IMG/VR virus record: IMGVR_UViG_2563366831_000011
Coordinates: 1 to 50,364 of that record
Strand: one strand, 5' to 3'
Length of the DNA: 50,364 bases
Origin: a virus
Taxonomy: Duplodnaviria; Heunggongvirae; Uroviricota; Caudoviricetes
Shown here: positions 2,410 to 45,224 of the stretch, piece by piece
How the letters are laid out: every line of letters starts with the position of its first letter
How positions within the stretch are numbered: position 1 is the stretch's first letter
The notes under the pieces: model-generated
Databases searched by the model: none
What the model was told of the DNA's origin: nothing
The model's input: the letters and a program-made list of their open reading frames with translations, nothing else
Position numbers and translations under genes: made by a program

Positions 2410-3441
2410 TTACGCGAATTCTTCCACGATCGCCATGCCAGTAGCACCATCACCACCGGTAAATGCCGCACCGGTAAACCCAAGGTCATACGCGCCACCA
2501 CCACCGGATCCGGGAGCTGCGCCAGCAATACCGGCCTGAGAACCCGCCCGGCCACCGCCGCCAAAATACGACGCCCCGCCGTTGCCCGTCAGAAGGCTTG
2601 AGCCTGTCTGTCCATCTGAGCCGGTACCACCGTTGATCCTGATATCTCCGGTCGCCGCCGTACCTCCGGCGCCGCCGGCGGTATTGGACACGCCTGACTT
2701 CACGCCGCCTTTCCCGCCAGGAGCTGAGAACAGGCTGGCAAACGAGGTGGCCCCACCATCTGCACCACTTACTGCGCCAACTCCGCCCTTACCACCCTTG
2801 CCGACAGTAATCGCATAAGAACTGGCAGCAGACAGGTCAACCCATACGATAATGGTCGCGCCCGCGCCGCCGCCAGCACCGGAGAAGGTTTCTGTATTGT
2901 TGTAGGCCTGGCAGCCGCCACCGCCGCCACCGGCACCTGTCAACGTTACTTTTGCATAACGGGCCAGAGGAGATCGCGTATAGGTTCCGTTTGCATAGAA
3001 AGCTTTTGGAGCGCCAAGTGAACGCCCGACAAAACCAGAGGAATCAGATATTCCGAGGTTATAACGGGCTTCATTTACCGCATCCTCACCGGCATCTTTA
3101 ATTTCTGACAGGTTATTGCTGATCTGCAGGAACGATAACAATGATCCGGCTGTCATTAAATTCGCGACAATGTCATTCGTTGACCATACGCGTGCCGTTG
3201 TTCCTTCCTGACCACGAATTACTGTCATCACGTCACCGGATACAGACGTTACGTGCATAATTTCAGAAATTGTTTTCGTGGCCGCGTCGGTTATCGTTAA
3301 TTTGAAATAACTCTGCCCAGATACAGGAGAAGGGAATAAAGCCCCCGCTCCAGTTCCCACGGTAATAACGGTAGCGGACGCACTAATACCCGCAGCGAGA
3401 ACACTCTTTGCGTTATTATTGGCTAATAGCTTCAGCGCCAT
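2410..3441 (-). CDS. Tail fibre protein with glycine-rich C-terminal domain
   Basis: 343 aa; C-terminal half is a Gly-rich repeat domain (GGGGGGCQAY...GGKGGVGAVSGADGG...AYDLGFTG) paralogous to the C-terminus of the 6914..8209 product. Confidence 0.7.
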   Translation of the reverse strand: MALKLLANNNAKSVLAAGISASATVITVGTGAGALFPSPVSGQSYFKLTITDAATKTISEIMHVTSVSGDVMTVIRGQEGTTARVWSTNDIVANLMTAGSLLSFLQISNNLSEIKDAGEDAVNEARYNLGISDSSGFVGRSLGAPKAFYANGTYTRSPLARYAKVTLTGAGGGGGGCQAYNNTETFSGAGGGAGATIIVWVDLSAASSYAITVGKGGKGGVGAVSGADGGATSFASLFSAPGGKGGVKSGVSNTAGGAGGTAATGDIRINGGTGSDGQTGSSLLTGNGGASYFGGGGRAGSQAGIAGAAPGSGGGGAYDLGFTGAAFTGGDGATGMAIVEEFA

Positions 3442-3452
3442 ATATACCCCAG

Positions 3453-3770
3453 TTAAATAATAGAATTATCAGAACGAACATCGCAGATAGTAAATGTCAC
3501 GACGCCGATGACAGTAACATCGTCCAGGGCTTCACCCTCGATCACTTCGCCATCTTCGGTAATAAGTGATCTTCCTCTCAGCTTGGCAAGCTCCGTCCCG
3601 CCGCCATGCTGTATAAGCAGTTGGCTACCCTGCTTTGGCTTCAGGGAGATATCTAGTACAACGTAACCACCAGATCGCTCGAAAACTAGCGTGTTTGGGC
3701 CGACATTGCAGATCGAGTTAACAGACAACCTTTGCTCGACGTAGTCCGTCGCTGGTGAAGGGAATCCCAT
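3453..3770 (-). CDS. Hypothetical protein, second gene of an SOS-box operon
   Basis: 105 aa from the internal start MGFPSP; its ATG overlaps the upstream stop as TAATG (translational coupling); no family recognised. Confidence 0.5.
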   Translation of the reverse strand: MGFPSPATDYVEQRLSVNSICNVGPNTLVFERSGGYVVLDISLKPKQGSQLLIQHGGGTELAKLRGRSLITEDGEVIEGEALDDVTVIGVVTFTICDVRSDNSII

Positions 3771-6913: not shown

Positions 6914-8209
6914 TTACCACTCGATATGCACAATGCCATCGGCGCCATCGCCGGACGGGTAAGCTATTCCGCTGAAATCAATATCGTAAGCACCACCACC
7001 GCCAGAGCCTGCTGCTTTCCCTTTCACACCGCCGGTTGCGCCGCTGCGTCCTCCGCCACCCCAGAACGAAGCCCCGCCAGAACCGGTAAGCATGTTGGTC
7101 GCAGCCTGGCCGTCATGACCAGTGCCACCCTGAATGTTGATATCGCCACCTGACGCAACACCGCCATCACCACCGGCGCTGTTCACGATGCTGGCCTTGT
7201 TGGATTTTTTTCCACCGCGGCCGAAGATGATCCCACCCAAAGAAGAGTCACCGCCGTCATTGCCCGATACGGCACCTAAAACCGCTGCACCGCCTTTGCC
7301 GACGACAACGGATAAGGTCGTTCCCGGGACAACGTCCAGCCAGCCTAAAGCTGTACCGCCAGCCCCGCCACCGCCACCGCTATAGGACTCACTTGAGGAG
7401 GACGCCTGACAACCGCTTCCGGATCCGCCTGCACCCGTCACGGTGTAACGAATGCGCGTCACCCCTGCAGGCACGACGAACGAATACGTCCCGTTGACTG
7501 CGTAAGCGATGTTTCCGTGAGGCTTCGAAAGGGAGGTTACGTTGGTTCCATCGGAGTGGATTTGCGTAACCGTTCCTGGCTTGCTGACAACTGTTGCGCC
7601 CGCCGCCCTGGTACTTAACTGAACGTAGTAAGCGCTGCCGGTGCAGTTATTTTCGATGGTCCAGTCTTTCACCCATGGAGGGAGATATAGGATCCGGTTA
7701 CCAGTTAGCGCGCCGGTGAGAATTAGCCGTGGGTTAGCAGCCTGCAGATCGGTGGCGTTAACGTTAGCCGTCGATATTGAAATGCTGGCCGCTCCGCATC
7801 CCCATGAAGGCATCCAGCCAGATGCCGTTGCATCGGTTTTTTCCGGTGCGGTGTTATTGGAGTCAATGGTGTTGAGCCACGACACCGAGTAATCGCTGGA
7901 AGGGATCACCGCACCTTTAGGGTAGCCTGAAATTGCTGTTCTGAAATCTGCGTTAAAGGGGTACCCCATCCCGGCATCCGACCATTGCAGGCGAGTGTAA
8001 AGATCATTAAAAATGCCGTTAAAGTCCTGACCCTTTGGCGGCTTACCGCCGGCAGAAAGTGCGATACGGGTCAGCGGCGGGAAACCGGAATCCATAGCCG
8101 CCAGGCCGTCGGCCAGCGTTTCAGAGGTGGAATTGACCGGGATCGTGTTTTTGTCGCCGCTCGCAGAAAATACAACCGTCAGACGTGACGGTATGGCTGA
8201 ATTATTCAA
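6914..8209 (-). CDS. Tail fibre protein with glycine-rich C-terminal domain
   Basis: 431 aa; C-terminal Gly-rich domain (GGGGGAGGTALGW...GGKGG...AYDIDFSG) paralogous to 2410..3441; follows the baseplate I-like gene. Confidence 0.7.
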   Translation of the reverse strand: MNNSAIPSRLTVVFSASGDKNTIPVNSTSETLADGLAAMDSGFPPLTRIALSAGGKPPKGQDFNGIFNDLYTRLQWSDAGMGYPFNADFRTAISGYPKGAVIPSSDYSVSWLNTIDSNNTAPEKTDATASGWMPSWGCGAASISISTANVNATDLQAANPRLILTGALTGNRILYLPPWVKDWTIENNCTGSAYYVQLSTRAAGATVVSKPGTVTQIHSDGTNVTSLSKPHGNIAYAVNGTYSFVVPAGVTRIRYTVTGAGGSGSGCQASSSSESYSGGGGGAGGTALGWLDVVPGTTLSVVVGKGGAAVLGAVSGNDGGDSSLGGIIFGRGGKKSNKASIVNSAGGDGGVASGGDINIQGGTGHDGQAATNMLTGSGGASFWGGGGRSGATGGVKGKAAGSGGGGAYDIDFSGIAYPSGDGADGIVHIEW

Positions 8210-13294: not shown

Positions 13295-14153
13295 TGCTTT
13301 CCCCTCCGATGACAGATGCCGGAGATGCCACAACAAACGTCTCCCAAAGCCCACCAGGCACTTTACAGGACAGATAGTGGGTAGTCCCCGCCTGCACCAC
13401 CCACTCGCCGCTAGCGTGTGGCAAGTCTGTTTTCAGGATGATCTTCGTATTCAATTTTAGCGCCGGTGAATAAATGCACCTAAAGTTAATCCCCATCTCA
13501 TAAAATATTGGATACCCAATAAGTCCATGCTCTGGCGAAATTAACGGAACAACTGAATCCGACGGTGTTTTGCCTGTATAAATTGTGACAGTGCCAAAAT
13601 CTATATCAACAGATATGTCATGCGCTGCCGCAATTTTTAATATTTGGATTATTGCGTTGTCATCGAAATACGGATTCCGATGCGTCGCTTTGACGTCGAC
13701 ATTGATGAATTTCAGGCCAACTTTAAAGGCAAGAGCACGAATCATATCAGCAACATCAGCATCGCCGCGAATGGACGTAGGCTCGCAGGGGATCAGGCGC
13801 TCCCTGCCGGCGGCCGCCGCGGTTATCTCAATCGGTGCGTCCGGCATCTGGTTCAGGTTAATCCTGGCAGATGTTATTGACCCGGAAAAAACACGGGTGT
13901 CGCCGGCGTAAACGACAATTGAGTTCTGTGCATACGCGATTATCTTTTGCGCGTTGGTCGTCAACTTTGACATGTTTTCCAGGGAAAGTCCCCAGAGGCT
14001 AAGTTCAAGAATCGTTCCGGTAGCGCCGCCAAATGCTGATATAGCCGCCTCACACTTGAAACCTTTAACCGTCAAGGTGTCGCCAATGTCGCCGTCAAAC
14101 GTACCGTTGGCCAGCGTGAACGATACGGTAAGCTCTCTCTCCTTGTAACTCAT
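13284..14153 (-). CDS. Tail/baseplate structural protein (hub-like)
   Basis: 289 aa; between tape measure and spike genes. Confidence 0.45.
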   Translation of the reverse strand: MSYKERELTVSFTLANGTFDGDIGDTLTVKGFKCEAAISAFGGATGTILELSLWGLSLENMSKLTTNAQKIIAYAQNSIVVYAGDTRVFSGSITSARINLNQMPDAPIEITAAAAGRERLIPCEPTSIRGDADVADMIRALAFKVGLKFINVDVKATHRNPYFDDNAIIQILKIAAAHDISVDIDFGTVTIYTGKTPSDSVVPLISPEHGLIGYPIFYEMGINFRCIYSPALKLNTKIILKTDLPHASGEWVVQAGTTHYLSCKVPGGLWETFVVASPASVIGGESNGN

Positions 14154-30019: not shown

Positions 30020-30688
30020 TCACGCCAGCTTAAGCATGCACGTCCCGCACGCTCTGGCAACATCGATATGAGCAACCTCCGCCGGCCTGTTCGCAGCATC
30101 CACCATTTCCTGCACGTCTTTGCTGGCGCCGTAACGCCGGACAACTCCGACGAATTCCTCGACGTCGTGGCCGCGAAGTTTGAGCACCGGCATACCGGTC
30201 TCTTTGTTGAATTTCGGCGCGCCATAGTCATCGGTAGCCTGGGCGATGTGGTAAAGCTCATGCTCTACCAGTGCGCAGAACTCCAGATCGTTGCATTGCT
30301 CGCAGTAGTCAGCAGCCAGGGTGATGATGAACTTCGGTATGCGTCCGAACCATTCATGCATCTGCTGCTCCATTCTGGCTTTCTGCCAGCCACCGGCGCG
30401 CATCATTACCTGCTCACACTGGCCCAGCACAATGCGGCCGCTTTTGGCGAATGAGCCAGAGGCCCACATGAACGCGACATCAGCATCGAGCAAGTGCGCA
30501 TGGTCAGGGTTATGGATTCGGCCATCTTCGGAGAGGATGTTCTGATTTACCCATTCGCCGATTTCGGCAGCAGGGATCAGCCGGGTATAAGGCAGCCAGT
30601 TTTCGCCAGTGAAGTTGACGGGAGGGTATGGTCTGCGATTGTCATTTCCAGCCATACAGAATAATCCTCTGGGTTGCTTTGATGCCAT
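30020..30688 (-). CDS. HExxH-motif protein (putative zinc metallopeptidase-like), unknown function
   Basis: 222 aa; HELYH motif and flanking Cys clusters (CEQCNDLEFC, CGTC); first gene of the packaging operon. Confidence 0.4.
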   Translation of the reverse strand: MASKQPRGLFCMAGNDNRRPYPPVNFTGENWLPYTRLIPAAEIGEWVNQNILSEDGRIHNPDHAHLLDADVAFMWASGSFAKSGRIVLGQCEQVMMRAGGWQKARMEQQMHEWFGRIPKFIITLAADYCEQCNDLEFCALVEHELYHIAQATDDYGAPKFNKETGMPVLKLRGHDVEEFVGVVRRYGASKDVQEMVDAANRPAEVAHIDVARACGTCMLKLA

Positions 30689-30828
30689 TTCGGTAATTTC
30701 GACACCGCAGTACCCGTAAACTCACATAAAACTCTGTCAATGATACAAAAAGGCATCATTTGCAGAACTTTATAAAATTATTGAACGCCTCTTTCGGTAC
30801 CTACCTTTGTCTGCCGGCATGGATGTGC

Positions 30829-30848
30829 TTGTCTCTTATAAGAGACAA
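30829..30848. promoter_or_regulatory. Perfect 20-bp palindrome TTGTCTCTTATAAGAGACAA
   Basis: Self-complementary over all 20 positions; lies in a 620-bp noncoding island. Confidence 0.5.
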
Positions 30849-30890
30849 AGACTGCTCAGAAGCTATTAAGACTCACTATTAGGAAGGGCT

Positions 30891-30930
30891 TGTCCAACAC
30901 GTTGGACACTCAATAGTGGCGAGTATAGAA
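30891..30930 (+). promoter_or_regulatory. Inverted repeat TGTCCAAC-AC-GTTGGACA overlapping a candidate sigma70 promoter
   Basis: 8-2-8 inverted repeat sharing the GTTGGACA motif with the ori iterons; TTGGAC, 16-bp spacer, TATAGA. Confidence 0.4.
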
Positions 30931-31041
30931 CGAAAAATAACCGTTCAAGGCCTTTAATGTTACACGAGTAGGAACAGCCACAGGAGGAATAAGTTACACA
31001 ATAGAAATCAGACTTCGCCCAATAATCAAAAAGGAGAATAA

Positions 31042-31158
31042 ATGTTGAAAATCAGTTTGTTTAGAACAATCGTCAATCACAAAATAACCTTCGCTGTCAT
31101 CTGCTTCCTTTTGAGCCTGATTCACTTCTACTTAACCGGCTCGCCTCTATCTTTCTAA
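31042..31158 (+). CDS. Small hydrophobic peptide (38 aa), hypothetical
   Basis: AAGGAG Shine-Dalgarno 7 nt upstream of the ATG; product MLKISLFRTIVNHKITFAVICFLLSLIHFYLTGSPLSF is mostly hydrophobic; opposite strand to the flanking late genes. Confidence 0.3.
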   Translation: MLKISLFRTIVNHKITFAVICFLLSLIHFYLTGSPLSF

Positions 31159-31311
31159 TCCTCGATTAATCCAAATTTCACTGCCATAATGCCGACATTC
31201 TCTGCCATTGTTGGCTCCGTTTATCCGTTAAAAGGGATATCAGTTAAGTTATCCCGTGCAGGGTATAAGCCATTATCAAGCCCCCCGTAGATAGGCTTTG
31301 TAATGACATCT

Positions 31312-31836
31312 TCAATTAATCAGCAGTTCAGGCTGTGTCACCTGCAAGATGTATTCATGCTCGACAGCCAGGACACGCTTCTCTTTCTTCCGTTCGTTCA
31401 TTAACCGACTGCCGATCGTACCTTTCAGCTTTGAGCGTGTTTCTTTGATGGCGTAGCGGTGCTGCATTTCTTCGCCAATTGCCATGCGGCGGCTCAGTTG
31501 CTCTGCCATCCAGTTGAATGCTGCGATATAGCTCTCCTTGATTGCCGCAGCAGCTTTCCCGGTGAACCCCATCACAACCATGATCCAGCCATCTTTCGTC
31601 AGGCTGTACATCGGGCGAACCTTGCCCTGCTCATCGATATAATCAGCCGACGCAAAATTGCGTTGGCTAAACTCACGCGAGCAATCAGCCTTAACCTGCT
31701 CGATTTTCCTGAGAACATCACCGTGTCGCTTGCCGAAGTACTTGGCAATTTTTCTGGATGTGGTAACGACCTCTCCGTTTTTGGCTTGCACCATTTCTCG
31801 GAAGTCGAAGGCTGGAATAACTGAATGATTATTCAT
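31312..31836 (-). CDS. rha: Rha-family phage regulatory protein (moron copy 2)
   Basis: 174 aa from MNNHSVI (tracked ORF starts at 31872); paralogous to 17959..18516; shared C-terminal AFNWM motif. Confidence 0.65.
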   Translation of the reverse strand: MNNHSVIPAFDFREMVQAKNGEVVTTSRKIAKYFGKRHGDVLRKIEQVKADCSREFSQRNFASADYIDEQGKVRPMYSLTKDGWIMVVMGFTGKAAAAIKESYIAAFNWMAEQLSRRMAIGEEMQHRYAIKETRSKLKGTIGSRLMNERKKEKRVLAVEHEYILQVTQPELLIN

Positions 31837-31847
31837 AGCGTCTTTAC

Positions 31848-31937
31848 CTTTTAGAAAGTGAGCCTGTCTCACAGAAAAGCCGCCCGAGAGAGGTCGCCAC
31901 CTATAACGGCATTTCTCAGGCTCGCTTACTGAAAGGC
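31848..31937. repeat. Conserved Rha leader element, copy B
   Basis: About 85 percent identical to 18527..18616, same position relative to the rha start codon. Confidence 0.7.
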
Positions 31938-32034: not shown

Positions 32035-32472
32035 TTATTTCAGGCATTGCGCCCTGATGTATTCCTGCAGGTAGTTGACCTGTGCGGTTATCTTGTCGAT
32101 TCCACTTCGGAGACGGTAATAATTGAGTTCAGCATCTGCTGTAAGTCTTGGGCTTTCTCCATCGCCCATGCTGCTGGCTCTGGTCGTTGATTTTGCACAG
32201 GTGGCGGCGACTTGCAGGCGCTTACGCCCAGAAGAAACATCAGCACGGAGACTTTCGATAGTCGCGTTAGCATCAGCAAGCTCCTTTGTATATCTGGCGT
32301 CGAGTTCTGCTACGTCACGTTGACGCTTCTGCATGTCAGCGATGATGGATGTGGCTTTGTCGCGCTGGGCTTTGTAGGCGATGGCGTTATCACGGTAATG
32401 ATTAACAGCCCATAACAGGCAGACGATGATGCAGATAACCAGAGCGGAGATAATCGCGGTGACTCTGCTCAT
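32035..32472 (-). CDS. Rz: Spanin inner-membrane subunit Rz
   Basis: 145 aa; N-terminus [19 protein letters not shown] matches lambda Rz from memory; follows endolysin. Confidence 0.8.
32088..32279 (-). CDS. Rz1: Spanin outer-membrane lipoprotein Rz1 (embedded in Rz, +1 frame)
   Basis: 63-aa embedded ORF with lipobox LLGVSAC followed by a Pro-rich segment. Confidence 0.65.
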
Positions 32473-33494: not shown

Positions 33495-33570
33495 TGGTGC
33501 TGTTTAACGGACTTGAACCGCTACCCATTCGCTTACAAGGCGACCGCTCTACCATTGGAGCTAAAACAGC
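33495..33570 (-). tRNA. tRNA-Thr (anticodon UGU), phage-encoded
   Basis: 76 nt; perfect 7-bp acceptor stem, 4-bp D stem, anticodon loop CTTGTAA, T-loop TTCAAGT, discriminator A then CCA (folded by eye). Confidence 0.75.
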
Positions 33571-33575
33571 ATGTT

Positions 33576-33650
33576 TGGCGGGACAGCGTGGACTCGAACC
33601 ACGATAAGAAGGTTAACAGCCTTCCGTAATGACCTTTATACGACTGACCC
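33576..33650 (-). tRNA. tRNA-Asn-like (anticodon GUU), possibly degenerate
   Basis: 75 nt; 5-bp anticodon stem with loop CTGTTAA, T-stem and TTCGAGT loop, terminal CCA; one mismatch each in acceptor and D stems. Confidence 0.45.
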
Positions 33651-33713
33651 AAATAAAAAAAGCCACCGTTGCAACTTAAGAGTCACTAATGGCAGCTTAC
33701 CTTCTAATTATGG

Positions 33714-34232
33714 CTAAATGGATAATTGCATGTCAAGGCTTTTAACAGCAACATGCTTAACTTTCTCAACACGTTTACGCATTTTAAAAGCATTTTGCAT
33801 TGGCTGGTATAAAACAAATAATGACGCTTTCAGGATGTCGTCAATTTCGTTTCTACAGGTTGCCAGTGAAGGTTTTCTCCATCCCTCGCCACCACGTCCA
33901 CACATCTTGCGTGGCTTTGCAGTCGCGTGATAGTAGGATGCAATTGCTCGCTTAGATGAACCATGAGCGTAGTAGCTTAGGAGGATGCCAAAGGCTTTCT
34001 TGTCAATGTACATGACGGAATCGACGACCTGAGAAATCAACATTCCATCGTCATCATTACACATTGGCCTTGTCATAACTCTTCCCGGCTCTACGCTCTC
34101 CATGAACTTCGCTATTACGCTGCTCATGCGCTTTTCCAGACGACCTGAATAAACCCATGCGCCCCACAGTTCAAGCCAGCCATTCAGCCACTCATGCTGT
34201 TCTTTGGTGAGGTTTAGTTCTCTTATGCCCAC
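33714..34232 (-). CDS. Q: Late antiterminator Q (non-lambda type)
   Basis: 172 aa; WGAW...[12 protein letters not shown]...[10 protein letters not shown] pattern recalled from 933W-type Q proteins; located between the nin genes and the lysis cassette. Confidence 0.6.
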
Positions 34233-45069: not shown

Positions 45070-45224
45070 GTTTTACAGATAACTGGTCAGACGAAGAATT
45101 CATTCGTCAGATGAAAGATTTAATCGGTAACGAAGGAGATATTCATGTCACTTGCAACCACAGTGAAGGAGAGCAAGTTACAGAGACGCATGTACACGCA
45201 GAAAGCTCTCTGGTATCGCCATAA
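45066..45224 (+). CDS. Small acidic hypothetical protein (52 aa)
   Basis: ATG overlaps the upstream stop (ATGA); acidic composition. Confidence 0.3.
   Translation: MSFTDNWSDEEFIRQMKDLIGNEGDIHVTCNHSEGEQVTETHVHAESSLVSP

Follow-up and report, generated by a model that had tools for sequence, protein, structure and literature searches.

What transcribes a 38-codon gene that lies opposite the late operon of a prophage, and what might its product do? The question is raised by an open reading frame (ORF) at 31042–31158 on the plus strand of the window, by which we mean the whole stretch of DNA that was analysed (50,364 nucleotides (nt); IMG/VR record IMGVR_UViG_2563366831_000011, positions 1 to 50,364). 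The window carries a lambdoid prophage, and the ORF falls in an island of 623 nt without coding annotation (30689–31311). The original prediction had described the ORF as encoding a largely hydrophobic peptide behind a strong Shine-Dalgarno sequence, roughly 110 nt downstream of a candidate promoter, and had placed it among type I toxins or membrane-active morons. We find directly upstream of it four tandem promoters of the kind used by single-subunit phage RNA polymerases, each matching a different lineage of virulent phages. On balance, we favor a reading in which the ORF is the payload of a prophage 'promoter trap', where the four lineage-specific polymerase promoters would drive a membrane peptide that aborts infection. 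The parts of this module are as follows.

30863–30885, plus strand: P1, T7/Przondovirus-type promoter CTATTAAGACTCACTATTAGGAA; predicted start A30881, by analogy with T7 phi2.5 (TAATACGACTCACTATT/AGGG)
30889–30909, plus strand: hairpin or palindrome CTTGTCCAA-CACG-TTGGACAC, located between P1 and P2 where the predicted P1 transcript has its 5' end
30910–30932, plus strand: P2, Klebsiella Molineuxvirinae (SP6-like) promoter TCAATAGTGGCGAGTATAGAACG; predicted start G30928, 114 nt before the ATG
30953–30975, plus strand: P3, Drulisvirus (KP34-like) promoter TTTAATGTTACACGAGTAGGAAC; predicted start G30971
30989–31011, plus strand: P4, KL01-type Autographiviridae promoter ATAAGTTACACAATAGAAATCAG; predicted start G31004, 38 nt before the ATG
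31031–31036, plus strand: Shine-Dalgarno sequence AAGGAG, followed by a 5-nt spacer (AATAA) and the ATG
31042–31158, plus strand: payload ORF of allele type T1, a 38-amino-acid (aa) single-helix hydrophobic peptide, MLKISLFRTIVNHKITFAVICFLLSLIHFYLTGSPLSF

Short BLAST searches with the motifs of the island pointed to their cognate phages. Position weight matrices (PWMs) were then derived from four of these, all virulent Klebsiella Autographiviridae and independent of one another (Przondovirus VLCpiA3a, the Molineuxvirinae phage vB_KvaP_F5M1D, the Drulisvirus KP34, and KL01), and both strands of the whole 50-kb window were scanned, with shuffled windows as the control. For all four PWMs, the single best match in the window falls within 30863–31011 on the plus strand, with scores of 27.4–34.2 bits. 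The maxima in shuffled windows average 11–14 bits across the four, and the next-best matches in the real window reach only 10–17 bits. The four promoters occupy ∼180 nt before the ORF at spacings of 36–47 nt, and transcripts starting at A30881, G30928, G30971 and G31004 would have leaders of ∼161, 114, 71 and 38 nt.

P1 scores 27.4 bits with the VLCpiA3a PWM, which was built from 13 promoters that themselves score 23.3–36.0 bits (shuffled maximum, 12.0 on average; next-best match, 16.9); the island also contains the T7-promoter core GACTCACTAT. P2 is identical at 21 of 21 bases to a motif found about 10 times per genome in ∼45-kb Klebsiella podophages of the Molineuxvirinae. The motif has 11 sites in vB_KvaP_F5M1D, each of them on the transcribed strand and beyond the point where the RNA polymerase gene begins; nine are intergenic. 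At 34.2 bits, P2 is slightly below the range of that phage's own sites (35.5–38.8; shuffled maximum, 11.4 on average; next-best match, 10.4). The strong promoter of KP34, T(A/G)ATGTTACAGGAGTA, has been mapped by 5' rapid amplification of cDNA ends and in vitro transcription (PMC6834552). P3 reproduces it at 15 of 16 bases (TAATGTTACACGAGTA, 30955–30970), and the ACGAGTA variant seen in P3 also occurs at KP34's own site 12981. Matches to P3 at 21 of 22 bases are present in 227 Klebsiella phage records, and its score of 28.9 bits lies among those of the KP34 sites (27.2–30.1; next-best match, 13.9). P4 matches the repeated KL01 motif TTAAGTTACACAATAGAA and has an 18-nt core in common with the KL01 sites. 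KL01 has 8–9 such sites, (T)TAAGTTACACAATAGAA, all on the transcribed strand and mostly between annotated genes; P4 scores 27.9 bits, where the KL01 sites score 27.1–33.3 and the next-best match in the window 15.8. Judged by the score ranges of the phages' own sites, then, P1, P3 and P4 are within the range of single-subunit polymerase promoters and P2 is just under it. As read from these scores, P1 to P4 are phage RNA polymerase promoters in identity, order and statistical uniqueness.

The similarity to virulent phages is confined to the promoters. Matches extend over ∼21–29 nt and end at the promoter, with no flanking phage homology, and two promoter types are found within 150 nt of one another in none of the virulent-phage contigs. 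Because virulent contigs never mix types and the similarity stops at the promoter, the arrays appear to be assembled minimal promoters rather than captured fragments of one phage genome. Scans with the perfect SP6 and T7 consensus sequences returned virulent genomes, without any additional array of mixed types. The prophage itself is a temperate siphophage, and the window holds neither a T7-type RNA polymerase gene nor an ORF of suitable size for one.

No promoter of the host type accompanies the array. A consensus scan of 30300–31700, which may miss a weak promoter, found no sigma-70-like promoter on either strand, where 1.8 would be expected by chance. The candidate promoter that had been placed ∼110 nt upstream of the ORF does exist, its predicted start being that of P2, but it is a promoter of the phage RNA polymerase type and not a sigma-70 promoter.

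The translation signals of the ORF are unusual for the window. Among its 331 ATG-initiated ORFs of 30–60 aa (both strands), only four have a 6-mer Shine-Dalgarno sequence at proper spacing, and 31042–31158 is the sole hydrophobic one, with a grand average of hydropathy (GRAVY) of 1.23. Its best 17-aa stretch, residues 15–31 (ITFAVICFLLSLIHFYL), has a mean hydropathy of 2.33, so that by computed hydropathy the 38-aa peptide shares the small size and hydrophobic, membrane-targeting character of type I toxins. The sequence, length, strand and hydrophobic nature of the predicted peptide are all borne out, as is its position antisense to the late operon, whose genes are all on the minus strand; the AAGGAG is also present, although its spacing to the ATG is 5 rather than 7 nt. 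Gene callers and the Prokaryotic Genome Annotation Pipeline (PGAP) have missed this small membrane-peptide gene, as had been anticipated. The other three short ORFs with a Shine-Dalgarno sequence, at 45145 (plus strand, 56 aa), 36208 (minus strand, 58 aa) and 11610 (minus strand, 57 aa), encode hydrophilic or basic products and are probably genuine small genes of the phage that fall short of a 60-aa cutoff.

The ORF belongs to an unannotated family of 36–40-aa hydrophobic peptides in temperate phages of Escherichia coli, Shigella, Klebsiella and Enterobacter. The original prediction had made its case depend on conservation in related prophages, and the ORF is indeed conserved: it is found with three aa changes in Klebsiella phage Kp4864-1, the sole relative with the whole island, with one aa change in a second locus (L067), and as related alleles in dozens of temperate-phage loci where the Shine-Dalgarno sequence, frame and stop are all kept. 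Loci that share one flank alone still carry an ORF at the same place, with its own AAGGAGG and the same stop. Scanning viral contigs with the 3' end of the ORF yielded 45 loci with three allele types, in every one of which AAGGAG or AAGGAGG is found at the same spacing.

T1: the type in the window, 38 aa
T2: MLEVLNSLAPFAPAINAIVILICSIIAKYYGVLPLPF, 37 aa
T3: MFHSTSHQAVIM...LFRFTLSLIHFYLTGSPLSF, 40 aa, the common E. coli form

Of the six frames, that of the ORF has the lowest ratio of nonsynonymous to synonymous polymorphism (pN/pS) both for T2 (0.18) and for T1 (0.40). These low values argue that T1 and T2 are protein-coding and under constraint. Copies in protein databases are unnamed or 'hypothetical' proteins of E. 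coli and Klebsiella, and public assemblies contain one T2 allele on 1000 or more contigs. No match appeared when a single genome from each species was scanned with the 3' end of the ORF, and the plasmid collection gave three short partial matches only. A tblastn search of the peptide against GenBank phages returned temperate phages only, with no homologue in virulent Autographiviridae. Because its homologues are confined to temperate phages in this search, the payload does not appear to have been captured from virulent Autographiviridae. None of five payload types matched Pfam, NCBIfam, PHROGs or PADLOC, even at E ≤ 1, and no payload matched a described toxin family (Hok, Ldr, TisB, Ibs, ShoB, DinQ, ZorO and others) in these collections.

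The association between promoters and small ORFs also holds when the ORF is left out of the search. Scans seeded with the promoters alone turned up additional arrays that keep this order, and behind each stands AAGGAG(G) with a hydrophobic ORF of 36–38 aa; the payloads include MSHIEIIHLIDSYVLLATHIISLIIVCRKLIADLSRRS, which is unrelated to T1–T3, and MLEYLKALSPYAASINCITFLICLLIAKYFGVLQYF, which is related to T2. In total, we counted 69 arrays with the same order and orientation, behind which stand payloads from at least three unrelated sequence families. With PWMs for T7 (from the annotated start sites of NC_001604) and SP6 (promoters from NC_004831), 103 matches of at least 12 bits were found in 465 kb of related temperate-phage DNA. 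Ninety of these lie at most 400 nt upstream of the small ORF on the same strand, and a further 10 come from a second, tandem copy of the module. The top scores in related loci, 29.8 bits for T7 and 29.1 bits for SP6, are inside the range of real promoters (26–39 bits for T7's own sites).

The module has a distinct form in E. coli, with two promoters.

E. coli-type module, promoter 1: T7-like, CAATACAACTCACTAATGGGAGA (compare T7 phiOL, TAATACAACTCACTATAAGGAGA)
E. coli-type module, promoter 2: near-perfect SP6-type, GATTTACTGGACACTATAGAAGG, 23/23 identical to the K1E promoter at 13924

The E. coli allele scores 36.2 bits with a K1E PWM (own sites, 21–37 bits), and 626 of 5426 complete E. coli genomes (∼12%) carry the module without annotation, strain EC9682 (NZ_CP095271 3221092–3221359) being an example. 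As classified by these motifs, promoter content matches the host: E. coli modules have the T7 and K1E types, and those of Klebsiella type have promoters like those of Przondovirus, Molineuxvirinae, Drulisvirus and KL01. Loci differ at P1 in the bases that would determine polymerase specificity (GACTC, AACTC, GGTAG, GGGCC) while the CACTATAG core is kept. The hairpin between P1 and P2 is varied in related loci by compensatory changes (GTCTCAC/GTGAGAC, GCCTCAC/GTGAGGC, GTCCAAC/GTTGGAC), but since it is replaced in some loci it does not seem to be indispensable.

Two further occurrences of such promoters beside temperate-phage genes may be mentioned here. Five E. coli loci (L013, L015, L020, L030 and L048) have a second tandem pair of T7-like and K1E-like promoters ∼286 nt upstream of the main module, in which the Shine-Dalgarno sequence and ORF are replaced by the end of an HNH-endonuclease pseudogene. 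Enterobacter phage vB_EclS_CobraSix (OK499971 47267–47380; L255 150–560) has an analogous module beside its Rha gene, with T7-type motifs ATTAAAGCCCACTATTAGAGAG and AATTAGAGACCACTATTGAAGG, a hairpin, AAGGAG and an annotated, related 37-aa ORF, MLTSQGWVAILQAPITYILVWFSLSVIHYMITGVPLV.

How would such a module work? With no recognizable promoter for the host polymerase, the peptide gene would stay off both in the lysogen and when the prophage itself grows lytically. An infecting phage of a matching lineage makes its own polymerase, which would transcribe the gene into nested mRNAs, and the strong Shine-Dalgarno sequence would ensure that the peptide is translated. The peptide would then enter the inner membrane and either kill or depolarize the cell or block a membrane step of the invader; infection would be aborted, and sister lysogens with their copies of the prophage would be spared. 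In this scheme, it is from sequence that we infer transcription by phage polymerases, membrane insertion or toxicity, and the outcome as defence. A broader formulation, toward which we lean only slightly, is that the module is an immune sensor that dispenses with a sensor protein: its modular, host-matched promoters would be copied from virulent T7-like lineages, the invader's polymerase would read out a lethal or excluding micro-peptide, and diversification of the specificity bases would reflect an arms race over promoter recognition. The module is carried on a mobile element, occupies a variable moron position and turns over its parts rapidly, as is expected of a defence module.

The promoter evidence is the same for a variant of this scheme in which the cell survives, the peptide serving to block a podophage-specific membrane step such as holin timing or the last stage of transcription-driven genome entry via the ejectosome channel. 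In phages of the T7 type, it is their own polymerase that finishes drawing the genome in, and a membrane product made very early, as a membrane helix of this kind might be, could act before most of the genome is inside. We nevertheless regard non-lethal exclusion as unlikely, though it deserves more weight than any of the other alternatives, because unrelated hydrophobic payloads are interchangeable behind the same array, which fits generic membrane damage, and hence abortive infection, better than a specific contact; one array, moreover, serves four lineages with differing virion proteins. A quite different proposal, that of a type I toxin–antitoxin system or an ordinary moron, would have the gene transcribed by host polymerase in the lysogen, with an antisense RNA as a possible check, and would make the promoter matches incidental. 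A small hydrophobic peptide, a strong Shine-Dalgarno sequence and a moron position opposite the late operon, like that of lambda bor, are all compatible with it, but a sigma-70-like promoter and a match to Rfam or a toxin family are lacking in the searches described here, and four independent PWM peaks within 150 nt, together with 69 arrays in the same order, cannot be incidental. The search for an antisense RNA that the original prediction had called for matched no known RNA family: Rfam at the gathering score found just tRNAs elsewhere in the window, and at E ≤ 1 gave one spurious snoRNA match in the island. By the defining tests of host promoter, antisense RNA and family match, none of which was detected, this does not appear to be a type I toxin–antitoxin system, and we consider such a system or an ordinary moron improbable. 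What stands of the original proposal is a membrane-peptide moron of toxin-like size and hydrophobicity.

An equally improbable account dispenses with the peptide altogether: the array would act as a polymerase decoy, or as a source of long antisense transcripts that cross the late and lysis genes on the way to the repressor-side operon, and the ORF would be a by-product. Most host terminators do not stop phage polymerases, the search for a terminator behind the ORF came up empty, and purifying selection is not seen in T3 alleles, all of which would suit this account. It is difficult to square with the near-optimal Shine-Dalgarno sequence, ATG and hydrophobic frame of 36–40 codons that follow every array, even where the payload is unrelated, and with purifying selection on T2 and T1 in the ORF frame; a decoy present once in the chromosome would also probably absorb little polymerase next to hundreds of replicating phage genomes. 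Finally, the island is a mosaic and P1 alone is not significant with the T7 PWM, as might be the case if the whole arrangement were a functionless leftover of recombination or a coincidental likeness. We give this almost no credence, as the scores equal those of the phages' own promoters, four unrelated classes adjoin one another without phage homology around them, the 69 loci agree in order and orientation, and virulent phages never mix types.

Several observations weigh against the module being a trap that triggers abortive infection. This copy resides in E. coli and may rarely meet its triggers, given that the phages matching it best had Klebsiella as their isolation host. P1 scores just 17.1 bits with the T7 PWM, compared with 18.8 bits for an unrelated match inside a tail-fibre gene, and by itself it would not be significant on that matrix. 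T3, the commonest allele type in E. coli, has a pN/pS of 0.89, is without purifying selection and has a hypervariable N-terminal half; it is either unconstrained or diversifying. Decayed copies exist: one (L027) has lost its start codon, and the P1 variant most frequent in E. coli reaches just 17 bits. In some phages, conservation of the 3' half of the ORF (...LSLIHFYLTGSPLSF) may be due in part to an antisense o-spanin gene. Neither a terminator scan of 30300–31700 nor folding of the 3' flank found a convincing terminator after the ORF. For every member of the family, finally, what we say of expression, toxicity and phage resistance is inferred from sequence.

Resemblance of the window to T7 was rejected as stand-alone evidence on account of the 17.1-bit score of P1 and the 18.8-bit tail-fibre match. 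The latter, at 7380–7402 (plus strand), and a 16.9-bit match to the Przondovirus PWM at 33673–33695 (plus strand), beside tRNA-Asn/Thr, are probably chance occurrences.

Among known systems, the design most like the proposed one is nonA of the Bacillus subtilis prophage SPbeta. In the account given in PMC8270828 (citing Yamamoto et al. 2014), this small transmembrane protein stays silent until the unrelated virulent phage SP10 infects, is then transcribed via SP10 sigma factors and aborts the infection. Both would be prophage-encoded small membrane proteins switched on by the invader's transcription machinery, a property that for our locus is read from sequence. nonA differs in depending on SP10 sigma factors with the host polymerase, and in having one promoter directed at one phage. 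In the module described here, promoters for single-subunit polymerases are stacked, four in this array and two in E. coli, for several lineages and with far smaller payloads, of 36–40 aa. By analogy, nonA may be considered the closest documented natural precedent; the logic alone is in common, and we claim no descent. Defence genes transcribed by the invader's machinery would thus be a known kind, and what seems new is a natural, stacked, multi-specific array.

The payload resembles type I toxins (Hok, Ldr, TisB, ZorO, DinQ, ShoB, Ibs) in being a tiny single-helix hydrophobic peptide with strong translation signals that annotation misses. Hok/Sok has been reported to exclude T4. In type I systems, host polymerase makes the mRNA and an antisense RNA represses it; neither a promoter of host type nor an antisense RNA was detected here. 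In lambda, the moron bor lies between the genes for lysis and those for packaging and is oriented against the late operon. Like bor and other lambda-type morons and superinfection-exclusion genes, our ORF follows Rz/Rz1 and precedes the terminase genes on the opposite strand, and is presumed to benefit the lysogen; morons, however, are active in the lysogen from a host-type promoter of their own, whereas only foreign-polymerase promoters were found at this locus. Engineered phage-triggered suicide cassettes, in which a phage-inducible promoter was fused to a lethal gene, were reportedly made for Lactococcus in the 1990s. The design logic proposed here is the same, a lethal gene behind a promoter that only an infecting phage activates, but those cassettes were man-made, single-promoter and plasmid-borne, whereas this would be a natural, multi-specific module of a chromosomal prophage. 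The promoters themselves score within or just below the range of genuine Autographiviridae promoters (T7 phi2.5, phiOL, K1E/SP6, KP34), from which they differ in being carried, with their classes mixed, by a temperate siphophage that has no such polymerase. A full-text literature search that included the peptide sequences found no description of such arrays, within incomplete coverage.

If the proposed function is correct, ∼180 bp of promoters and a 38-codon gene would form one of the simplest immune devices imaginable, and a phage could escape it only by changing the promoter specificity of its own polymerase. It would partly explain unexplained resistance of E. coli and Klebsiella to T7-, SP6- and KP34-like phages, podophages of the type favored for therapy against K. 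pneumoniae and K1 E. coli. Defence genes of this sort, too small to annotate and with no protein family or host promoter, could evade every current detector, and a search of host and prophage DNA for foreign-polymerase promoters offers a new principle for finding them. The arrays could also serve as natural, ready-made reporters for several orthogonal phage polymerases, and they suggest caution in expressing T7-type polymerases in wild strains.

The prophage adjoins yfdC and tRNA-Arg of its E. coli host. The module sits between the lysis and packaging genes, as it does in lambdoid prophages, and the island that contains it is a mosaic of blocks with differing distributions among relatives. The neighboring features are given below.

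33714–34232, minus strand: Q antiterminator gene of the late operon
33495–33650, minus strand: tRNA-Thr(TGT) and tRNA-Asn(GTT), between the Q antiterminator and holin genes
between the tRNAs and Rz, minus strand: holin gene, then lysozyme gene, of the late operon
32035–32472, minus strand: Rz gene of the late operon
31312–31872, minus strand: Rha-family gene, adjoining the island
31159–31305, no strand assigned: conserved 3' flank of the ORF, its first part homologous to the 3' end of the o-spanin (Rz1) gene
30829–30848, no strand assigned: perfect 20-nt inverted repeat TTGTCTCTTA/TAAGAGACAA (palindrome TTGTCTCTTATAAGAGACAA), directly upstream of the promoter array
30020–30688, minus strand: phage metallopeptidase gene, adjoining the island on its other side and followed by DUF2280 and TerL genes

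The same arrangement of the tRNA pair is found in E. coli strain CFS3246 (L002). Downstream of the ORF, the window retains just a remnant of the Rz1 end. In Kp4864-1 and in Shigella phage SfIV (39009–39059), the Rz1 3' end overlaps the 3' half of the peptide ORF in antisense; in Kp4864-1 (L001), Rz1 is at 3409–3759 on the minus strand and the small ORF at 3354–3470 on the plus strand. Folding of the predicted mRNA (z = –0.66) and of the 3' flank (z = –1.95) gave no convincing structure, and the two terminator-like sites in the scan of 30300–31700 are both outside the module.

The inverted repeat at 30829–30848 is kept in Klebsiella-type loci. In its variants TTGTCTCCTATAAGAGACAA and TTGTCTCCTGTAAGAGACAA, our alignment suggests that pairing is preserved, through G-U pairs, only if the repeat is read on the minus strand. 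It may be an insulator or a processing hairpin, or it may be a hairpin of the minus-strand late transcript ahead of the packaging genes rather than a part of the trap.

A separate occurrence of T7-type promoters was seen at two loci, L212 (630–891; IMGVR_UViG_2869936548_000004) and L224 (5590–5851). Each has three tandem repeats of ∼120 bp with a perfect T7 class III consensus promoter, TAATACGACTCACTATAGGGAGA, in every repeat. An integrase-like ORF comes immediately before the repeats, and behind them are AT-rich 'ACTTAAAGTTAAC...' repeats and then insertion sequence (IS) elements. This is not the small-ORF module; one possibility is an integrated element, or a satellite, that takes advantage of T7-like phages.

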